The notes under the pieces were generated by a model, which saw nothing but the letters and a program-made list of their open reading frames with translations, did no database searches and was not told where the DNA came from. From Clostridia bacterium (GTDB lineage Bacteria; Bacillota; Clostridia; Christensenellales; UBA1242): a DNA stretch of 64,000 nt. The stretch is from assembly GCA_900768545.1 (NCBI GenBank), contig CAAGDD010000004.1:17250-81249 (forward strand), given 5' to 3'. A program made the position numbers and the translations under genes. Positions within the stretch are counted from its first letter, which is position 1, and each line of letters opens with the position of its first letter. Positions 30,022-30,150 of this stretch are shown here, piece after piece.

Positions 30022-30150
30022 GGGGCGAAAAACTTTCGCGCCGCGAGCGAAGCCGTCGGCGCGACCTTGGGCAGCGTGCAAGTGGCGTGTTTTTTGACCT
30101 TATTATGCTGCCCAATGGCTTAAAAACTCGTTTTTAAGCAGTTTTTCGCC
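30022..30150 (+). repeat. GC-rich cloverleaf-like intergenic element, copy A
   Basis: Closing stem GGCGAAAAAC/GTTTTTCGCC. H1 TCGCGCCG/CGGCGCGA, H2 TTGGGCAGC/GCTGCCCAA, H3 GCTTAAAAAC/GTTTTTAAGC. Confidence 0.7.

Follow-up and report, generated by a model that had tools for sequence, protein, structure and literature searches.

Element A, an insertion between degV and a ttcA-like gene of an uncultured gut Clostridia bacterium, as a probable copy of a compound-palindrome repeat family

A 64,000-nucleotide stretch of chromosomal DNA from an uncultured Clostridia bacterium (contig CAAGDD010000004.1, positions 17,250 to 81,249; referred to below as the window) contains, between degV and a small open reading frame (ORF) followed by a PP-loop (ttcA-like) gene, a 129-base element at 30022-30150, here called element A, which folds into a closing stem with three hairpins. 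[quoted passage not shown] The family, which is previously undescribed, occurs in a group of uncultured gut Clostridia. Its members are 105-140 bp long and consist of outer inverted ends of the form (G/C)GGGCGA...TCGCCC(C/G) around exactly three hairpins, and the copies are dispersed at gene 3' ends in intergenic DNA, in both orientations, being multi-copy in some genomes and absent from most relatives. Element A itself is an insertion between the degV terminator and the upstream region of the next gene, not a regulator of degV or ttcA, and it probably has little function of its own.

The fold that a preliminary description, made from the sequence alone, had assigned to element A is borne out in each of its helices. 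The closing stem has 10 bp, formed by GGCGAAAAAC (30024-30033) and GTTTTTCGCC (30141-30150); it encloses H1 (30036-30043/30057-30064, with the hairpin tip GCGAAGC at 30047-30053), H2 (30067-30075/30107-30115) and H3 (30118-30127/30130-30139), the innermost pair of which cannot form because the gap between its arms is only 2 nt. The minimum-energy structure computed with RNAfold is the same four-way junction on both strands, and its stability for the two strands corresponds to z-scores of -4.0 and -5.2 from an RNAfold-based tool and of -5.7 and -6.3 against 200 dinucleotide shuffles. In most other strains position 30116 is G, H2 reaches 11 bp, and the junction is left almost without unpaired bases. 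Directly upstream a terminator scan places the intrinsic terminator of degV (29988-30014, plus strand), with an 8-bp stem at 29988-30007, a 4-nt loop and a following T-run, and the homologous terminator is kept in relatives that lack element A. Since this canonical terminator precedes it, element A is dispensable for ending degV transcription, as had been proposed; its own closing stem is not followed by the T-run of an intrinsic terminator.

Three further elements of the window carry the outer ends GGGGCGA...TCGCCCC around three hairpins, and none of the four, including A, is assigned to a strand. Element B (31463-31579, ends GGGGCGAAAAG/CTTTTCGCCCC) lies between a GGGtGRT-family gene and yjzC, both on the minus strand. 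Element C (50925-51054, ends GGGGCGAAAAGC/GCTTTTCGCCCC) begins at the stop codon and fills the gap between the acyltransferase gene and the convergent HlyIII gene; at its centre stands a hairpin that is a bidirectional terminator of the form A7-stem-T8. Element E (57708-57842, closing stem GGGCGACGG/CCGTCGCCC), which the preliminary description had not listed and which came from a structural scan, lies between the convergent PPDK and veg genes and has the heptamer GGGGCGA at its right end. The termini and layout that A was said to share with B and C are thus confirmed, as is the 5' context GGTGGGGCGAAAA common to the left side of A and to B read on the minus strand. On both strands of the window together the heptamer occurs six times against 1.5 expected, and all six occurrences are outer ends of A, B, C or E; the inverted ends can be written more fully as GGGGCGA(AAAG)...(CTTT)TCGCCCC, so that terminal inverted repeats such as define a MITE are present. 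The pattern GGCGAAAA-N80-140-TTTTCGCC occurs three times in the window (in A, B and C) and in none of 100 shuffled sequences.

The layout can also be detected without reference to sequence. A scan which specified a closing stem of 7 or more perfectly paired bp, two or more branches, no more than six unpaired junction bases, at least 75% of bases paired and an energy of -0.40 kcal per nt or lower gave exactly five matches in the window, each with exactly three branches, and none in 1.3 Mb from 80 related genomes. The five elements (A, B, C, E and an element D that is described below) are all intergenic, each being located 3' of at least one gene, as A follows degV and B the GGGtGRT-family gene, and they amount to 4-5 elements per 64 kb; the 10 kb past each end of the window holds dense ribosomal and mur operons and no further elements. 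Both strands of these elements fold about equally well (z of -5.7 to -12), and their helices, with arms of 5-15 bp and loops of 3-30 nt, are nearly all Watson-Crick on both strands.

The host is a spore-forming member of the Clostridia. Its window has a GC content of about 36% and contains housekeeping genes that include a ribosomal-protein operon, dnaE, priA and spoIIR; the nearest relatives of its DegV are found in gut metagenome-assembled genomes (MAGs) and in “Candidatus (Ca.) Caccovivens”, and human-gut assemblies, among them those of Hadza and Nepal samples, commonly contain the species. Thirty relatives keep the order of degV followed by the 38-codon ORF and/or the ttcA-like gene and lack element A in that spacer; it is also lacking in a relative that has diverged by 13%. 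Where the small ORF directly follows degV in relatives, the spacer is mostly 62-112 nt long with a GC fraction of 0.15-0.32 and a plain terminator; the corresponding spacer of the window has a GC fraction of 0.46 and is 198 nt long, which equals 69 nt plus the 129-nt element. An ancestral TTTTTTATGCG can still be read to the left of element A, the empty site being located only approximately. At site B the relatives have 67-110 nt with a plain terminator between the GGGtGRT gene and yjzC, and the window has 222 nt, which equals 105 plus the 117 nt of element B. This presence and absence at orthologous sites, which is a mark of MITEs, shows by comparison of spacers that A (about 129 bp) and B (about 117 bp) were inserted in this lineage at places where relatives have only a short spacer.

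The spacer downstream of the GGGtGRT-family gene (window 31580-31700) also varies among strains, being 222, 372 or about 525 nt long (strain loci L112, L114, L115, L117-L119, L121 and L126). Extra elements were considered as the cause of these differences and rejected in favour of a tandem duplication unrelated to B, whose unit of about 150 nt takes in the final codons of the gene; in several other species as well, partial duplicates of the gene end are found 3' of the GGGtGRT-family gene (L133, L136, L151, L154 and L163). A left-flank motif, GCGG(T/A), that appeared to be non-random was likewise rejected as part of the element, because at C it consists of the acyltransferase's conserved Cys-Gly codons and at A part of it belongs to the ancestral spacer.

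It is against this distribution that the role implied by the preliminary description, that of a discrete structured RNA or cis-regulator, has to be judged. Element A is strongly structured and lies upstream of the 38-codon ORF (pep38, 30188-30304) and the PP-loop gene, as an independent small RNA gene or a cis-regulatory leader of these two genes would; but both genes are kept in the 30 relatives that have no element, a scan of 29800-31700 shows no promoter-like site adjoining A (its two sites are some 800 and 1,200 nt downstream), Rfam gives no match, and the sister elements stand between convergent genes or after unrelated ones (acyltransferase, clpX, germination protease, BNR protein). The almost pure Watson-Crick pairing of the helices on both strands, the neutral rate at which the stems evolve within the species, and the mid-element bidirectional terminator of some members, which would leave the whole fold off any one transcript, point the same way. 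A small RNA or leader of this kind is accordingly very improbable, and the implied role is not supported. The promoter for pep38 and ttcA in the window would, from its position in relatives, lie downstream of A: in relatives the short stretch before the small ORF contains a -10-like box. A -10-like box only about 6 nt before the ATG of pep38 suggests a leaderless mRNA. The peptide encoded by pep38 (MKKRKNKKQFESKNDPLGSYTGTALVGDEMPVQDADDL), which has no Pfam match, is kept between degV and the ttcA-like gene in many relatives, and an identical peptide is present in 135 collection blocks.

Homologous or isostructural copies in related genomes, the absence of which the preliminary description would have counted against a genuine element, do exist. 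They are found in Ca. Caccovivens faecavium, in four uncultured Clostridia MAGs and in one sister species. In the sister species, whose acyltransferase shows 79% identity, the stop codon that precedes C in the window is followed after 3 nt by an element of 138 nt, which has three hairpins within the closing stem GCGGGCGAAAG/CTTTCGCCCGC; between this element and C the alignable part is limited to the central A-run/stem/T-run terminator hairpin, and the remaining arms differ in sequence while keeping their pairing. In ERR3414586_bin.3 and BRZ_NS__bin95 an element with the same ends stands 1 nt after the acyltransferase stop codon. A genome scan for the ends, which used a loose pattern that gives many GC-rich chance matches and in which the low-GC matches are the informative ones, added copies from both of these genomes as well as from Ca. 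Caccovivens faecavium and BRZ_EH__bin128; ERR3414586_bin.3 holds five copies and BRZ_NS__bin95 four.

The relatives' copies, which occur in either orientation, share their interior sequence as well as their ends. From the left end GCGGGCGAAAG to the right end CTTTCGCCCGC they consist of GGCTTTTTGC, a variable tip and GCAAAAAGCC, then GCACGC-ttc-GCGTGC, then CCATGC-ctt-GCATGG, that is, of one longer AT-rich hairpin with a variable tip and two short GC-rich hairpins with loops of 3-4 nt, many of the loops being 3 nt. Their pairing is maintained by double changes: in an alignment of ten copies 95.8% of cells are paired, with G-U in 3 of 307 cells, and 13 of the 31 pairs have changed on both sides, compared to 4.9 ± 1.5 in shuffles and at most 5 when the partners are slid. 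In one copy both arms of the closing stem have changed together, to GGCGAGCAAAAG/CTTTTGCTCGCC. Orthologous elements stand after the acyltransferase gene in three lineages and after clpX in two species, Ca. Caccovivens faecavium and BRZ_EH__bin128, where they have the same layout and stems that have diverged yet remain paired; inserted copies therefore persist through speciation.

A covariance model (R1), built from the relatives' copies only, was used to search the window with filters off. A search of this kind had been proposed for element A, and it succeeds for C (28.6 bits, E-value 7e-5) and B (18-19 bits, E-value 0.02-0.03), the top matches of the window, but not for A. The model also finds the sister-species element and one new copy, gives element D 9.5 bits, which is no match, and returns nothing in 1.3 Mb around degV from 80 relatives; the copies of ERR3414586_bin.3 and BRZ_NS__bin95 score 85-111 bits, while within the window only the ends are alike. 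Rfam gives no family for the window at the gathering threshold, nothing relevant around A at E-values up to 10, and none for the relatives' copies at E-values up to 0.1. The only tRNA gene that ARAGORN predicts in the window is tRNA-Glu at 49330-49404, so none of the elements is a tRNA by this measure. Searches of the literature with the terminal sequences return only plasmid-backbone matches, and metagenome and viral scans only chance matches. A genome-wide scan for GGGGCGAAAA...TTTTCGCCCC gives 94 loci from many phyla, mostly REP doublets tagged with GTAG or chance matches, and none from the lineage of the window, whose species is absent from the scanned representatives.

Within the species, elements A-E are found at the same sites in every strain contig examined, in 4-12 distinct haplotypes per element, and A is present in 12 of 12. 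Variable sites number 32 of 500 in the stems, 34 of 684 at third codon positions in the flanks, 44 of 596 in other intergenic flank and 22 of 119 in the loops; the variability of the stems does not differ significantly from that of third codon positions or other intergenic sites, and the loops are more variable than the stems (p = 1e-4). Most stem changes within the species are uncompensated, and one pair of C shows the succession T-A, C-A, C-G across haplotypes. Single stem bases are thus close to neutral within the species, and hairpin tips are mutation hotspots. In H1 of element E a 6-nt indel relates AAAAGCAA-atcg-TTGCTTTT to the longer perfect hairpin AAAAGCAAATC-gaaa-GATTTGCTTTT, which is the signature of a hairpin-templated (template-switch) mutation.

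The position of the copies relative to genes raises the question of whether the family acts as RNA. At six of ten independent sites the element begins 0-11 nt past the stop codon of a gene of some size (acyltransferase, germination protease, clpX, BNR-repeat protein and two further proteins), no canonical terminator follows within 160 nt downstream of the relatives' copies, and most elements, if not each of them, hold a GC hairpin next to a T-run. These observations, together with the pairing that orthologous sites keep across species while their stems diverge, are what would be expected if the family were a functional RNA module of mRNA 3' ends, in which a four-way junction behind the stop codon ends transcription, blocks 3' exonucleases or stalls terminating ribosomes, and in which sequence drifts while the fold is selected; A would then be a displaced or decaying copy. 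For E. coli, a passage of PMC12306157 that cites Liang et al. 2015 reports the stalling of ribosomes by REPs that lie no more than 15 nt from a stop codon. This reading is nevertheless doubtful. A complete terminator precedes A, and the next promoter region, as located in relatives, follows it. In C, the sister-species element and a further cloverleaf considered below a bidirectional terminator stands in the middle, and if it works no single transcript contains both arms of the closing stem. G-U pairs make up only about 1-2% of pairs; many loops are of 3 nt, including GCGAAGC, which we take to be a DNA mini-hairpin motif; and within the species the stems are no more conserved than synonymous sites.

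An unlikely variant combines transcript function with mobility. The elements would be mobile mRNA 3'-end modules, four-way-junction RNAs that insert within about 10 nt of stop codons and replace the classical hairpin-plus-U terminator in this clade of gut Clostridia, defining or protecting 3' ends or coupling translation termination to mRNA fate, with the conserved 7-bp outer helix GGGGCGA/UCGCCCC being read by a dedicated protein or, as an acceptor-stem mimic, by tRNA-processing enzymes.

A cloverleaf at a tRNA gene suggests a different origin. At 1626-1739 of locus L268 (MAG Lapin-032__bin69) such a structure overlaps a functional tRNA-Glu(CTC) gene: its closing stem consists of the 3' part of the tRNA and an inverted copy about 100 nt downstream, and it encloses the terminator of the tRNA and two small GC hairpins. 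The shape can therefore arise by local inverted duplication without a shared mobile unit, and because of this locus the growth of palindromes in place has to be weighed as an explanation of the family, the cloverleaves then not being mobile but having grown round terminator hairpins by repeated template-switch (fold-back) inverted copying. The strain difference in H1 of E, a 6-nt insertion that extends a perfect palindrome, accords with such growth, as do the hypervariable loops, the perfect Watson-Crick pairing, and the core of C, which is the ancestral type of bidirectional terminator and the sole part that can be aligned with the sister species. What it leaves unexplained is that unrelated loci and different species have identical outer ends (GGGGCGA, GCGGGCGAAAG), that copies in one genome have interior modules in common, and that the number of hairpins is constantly three. 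As an account of the whole family it is quite improbable, but growth in place probably contributes to the maintenance of the arms. A second tRNA-related locus, at 8049-8175 of a JGI metagenome contig (L103, Ga0207952_1000008), has an apparently complete tRNA sequence inside a long stem with the outer ends GGGGCGAAAAG/CTTTTCGCCCC; this stem may be a product of chance or a processing stalk.

The assignment of element A to a dispersed repeat family must itself be set against several results that weigh on the other side. The interiors of A, B, C and E have no alignable sequence between them, and an alignment of A, B, C, D and E with MAFFT gives nothing meaningful; simple copying and pasting would keep similarity, so many subfamilies or a fast turnover of the arms must be assumed. 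The five elements were compared by BLAST with the window, with all loci and with plasmids and phages, and gave no partial matches, which indicates that the interiors were not captured from elsewhere. R1 gives only a 9.7-bit partial match to A and 11.9 bits to E (E-value about 1), neither of them significant, so the membership of A rests on its ends, its size, the three-hairpin layout and the GCGAAGC tip, which is common to A and C and also found, on the other strand, in the GC hairpin of the relatives' copies. No target-site duplication was seen, as no direct repeat flanks any of about 15 copies; no insertion polymorphism appears in the 4-12 haplotypes per element; and no transposase or mobility gene is present in the annotated parts of the window, about half of the long ORFs being unscanned. 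The long persistence of the copies, with pairing preserved at orthologous sites, is as compatible with selection on structure as with selfish DNA, and so is the slightly greater stability, with more G-U pairs, of the strand that is sense for the adjacent upstream gene in nine of ten copies, which hints at tolerance at the RNA level but is confounded by strand-specific mutation bias, which could produce it. L268, finally, has the same architecture derived from a local tRNA 3' end, and not every cloverleaf needs a mobile origin. Persistence with preserved pairing and the closeness to stop codons keep an RNA-level role for the family under consideration; for A itself such a role is unlikely because it lies behind a complete terminator.

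If the repeat-family assignment is correct, the units would spread by a copy-and-insert process at the DNA level that acts on a folded single strand; the enzyme might, at a guess, be a transposase of the HUH/Y1 type. Perfect arms would be kept partly by hairpin-templated correction through template switching. Element A would have been inserted behind the degV terminator and before the region that holds the pep38/ttcA promoter in relatives, a place where it would do little harm and probably little good, while copies 0-11 nt past a stop codon would be transcribed as structures of the 3' untranslated region and may act as 3'-end barriers or terminators in the manner of REPs in E. coli. A 317-aa gene present near C in some strains was examined as a candidate transposase and rejected, having no significant Pfam match and no element-like ends. 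This gene (L221 and L224, 4120-5300, from the same or a very close species) encodes a protein with a hydrophobic N-terminus, lies between the acyltransferase and MarR genes at a site which in the window is only 30 nt long, and comes after a C-run promoter region.

REPs, MITEs and other small palindromic repeats influence where transcription ends, how stable mRNAs are and how genomes are rearranged, and they are well studied mainly in Proteobacteria. Mobility of the present elements would imply an enzyme that recognises folded DNA; a role as RNA would mean that messages are ended or protected in a way not recognised so far. Whichever holds, the elements may confound the prediction of terminators and small RNAs in these genomes.

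Element D (36973-37081, plus strand), which follows acpS, shares the layout of a closing stem (GTGCCAAGAAATT/AATTTCTTGGCAC) with three hairpins, but its outer ends differ from those of A, B, C and E. TTTTTT, extending to 37087, follows the closing stem, so D has the form of an intrinsic terminator, and it is probably the branched terminator of acpS; its stems vary at only 2 of 94 positions among strains. Directly downstream, at 37178-37763, lies a PemK/MazF-type toxin gene whose start is overlapped by an ORF of 82 codons, the two forming a probable toxin-antitoxin pair. Other repetitive sequence in the window includes long, very strongly A/T-rich low-complexity intergenic tracts with short periodic repeats (AAAAAATAAT-like) at 62750-62870 and 20430-20650, and two 131-nt direct repeats detected by a repeat finder at 20638-20768 and 20991-21121, which are 94% identical and 353 nt apart.

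Of the known systems that the elements call to mind, integron attC sites share the location at ORF 3' ends, the conservation of the ends alone around a variable interior, the length (57-141 bp) and the action as folded single-stranded DNA. The R''/R' cores of attC, RYYYAAC/GTTRRRY, are however absent here: GAAAAAC/GTTTTTC of A has the wrong purine/pyrimidine pattern, and B and C have no AAC/GTT. The present elements also have no extrahelical bases, their helices are perfect and branched, and their neighbours are housekeeping genes rather than cassettes; no intI gene was found in the annotated parts of the window, with about half of the long ORFs unscanned. The mobile GC clusters and double-hairpin elements of fungal and algal mitochondria are GC-rich short hairpin insertions in AT-rich intergenic DNA whose fold, like that of these elements, is better conserved than their sequence, but they are organellar, have one or two hairpins and other ends, and show no evidence of relationship.

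The likeness to MITEs (RUP, Correia/NEMIS, ERIC, bcr1, EFAR, Nezha) is closer in form, and includes a length of about 100-150 bp, terminal inverted repeats, stable folds, a location beside genes, presence or absence between related genomes, and, in the relatives studied here, the similarity in sequence of copies from the same genome. The elements differ from MITEs in lacking target-site duplications, in having inverted ends of only 7-12 bp, and in the interiors of the copies in the window's species, which are unrelated to each other. To our knowledge a closing stem with three hairpins is not a described feature of MITEs, and we know of no parent insertion sequence.

With REPs, BIMEs and REPINs, which are mobilised by RAYT/TnpA-REP, the elements have in common that they are short non-coding extragenic palindromes present in many copies 3' of genes or in the gap between convergent ones, frequently no more than about 15 nt from a stop codon, in both orientations, patchy between species and conserved in structure. 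REPs are single hairpins of 20-40 nt, or doublets of them, whereas these elements have 105-140 nt and four helices. The GTAG/CGTC tag of REPs is also not found at their flanks, the bases beside the left ends being GGTG (A), TGGT (B, minus strand), CTAG (C) and GACG (E, minus strand) in the window and TAGG, TTAG, AGAG or GAGG in the relatives' copies. Short hairpins of the form GGCGAAA-loop-TTTCGCC are absent from the window's lineage. The genome scan did show that a hairpin, GTAG-GGGCGAAAAATTTTTCGCCC, is widespread, occurring among other phyla in Cyanobacteria, Chloroflexota, Planctomycetota and Bacteroidota, and these phyla match those in which GTAG REPs have been reported, namely Proteobacteria, Cyanobacteria, Chloroflexi and the Planctomycetes-Verrucomicrobia-Chlamydiae (PVC) group (PMC3733652); Firmicutes are not among the phyla that this review gives for GTAG or CGTC REPs. 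A near-identical hairpin of 21-22 nt, GGGGCGAAAAAT(C/T)TTTCGCCC(C), often tagged with GTAG/CTAC and arranged as inverted pairs or arrays, occurs in Cyanobacteria, Bacteroidota, Planctomycetota, Chloroflexota, Desulfobacterota and Omnitrophota among others (L001, L007, L010, L011, L025, L026, L030, L034, L069-L071, L074, L082, L085, L090 and L092) and looks like one REP type common to several phyla. The stem of the GTAG-GGGCGAAAAATTTTTCGCCC hairpin resembles the ends of the window elements, and the 5' end of A (GGGGGCGAAAAACTTTCGCGCC) resembles the hairpin as a whole, a likeness that may reflect either a distant relation or coincidence. What sets the present family apart from the known repeats is its occurrence in uncultured gut Clostridia with small genomes, its perfect four-way junction in place of a single hairpin, its conserved ends, and its position at stop codons.

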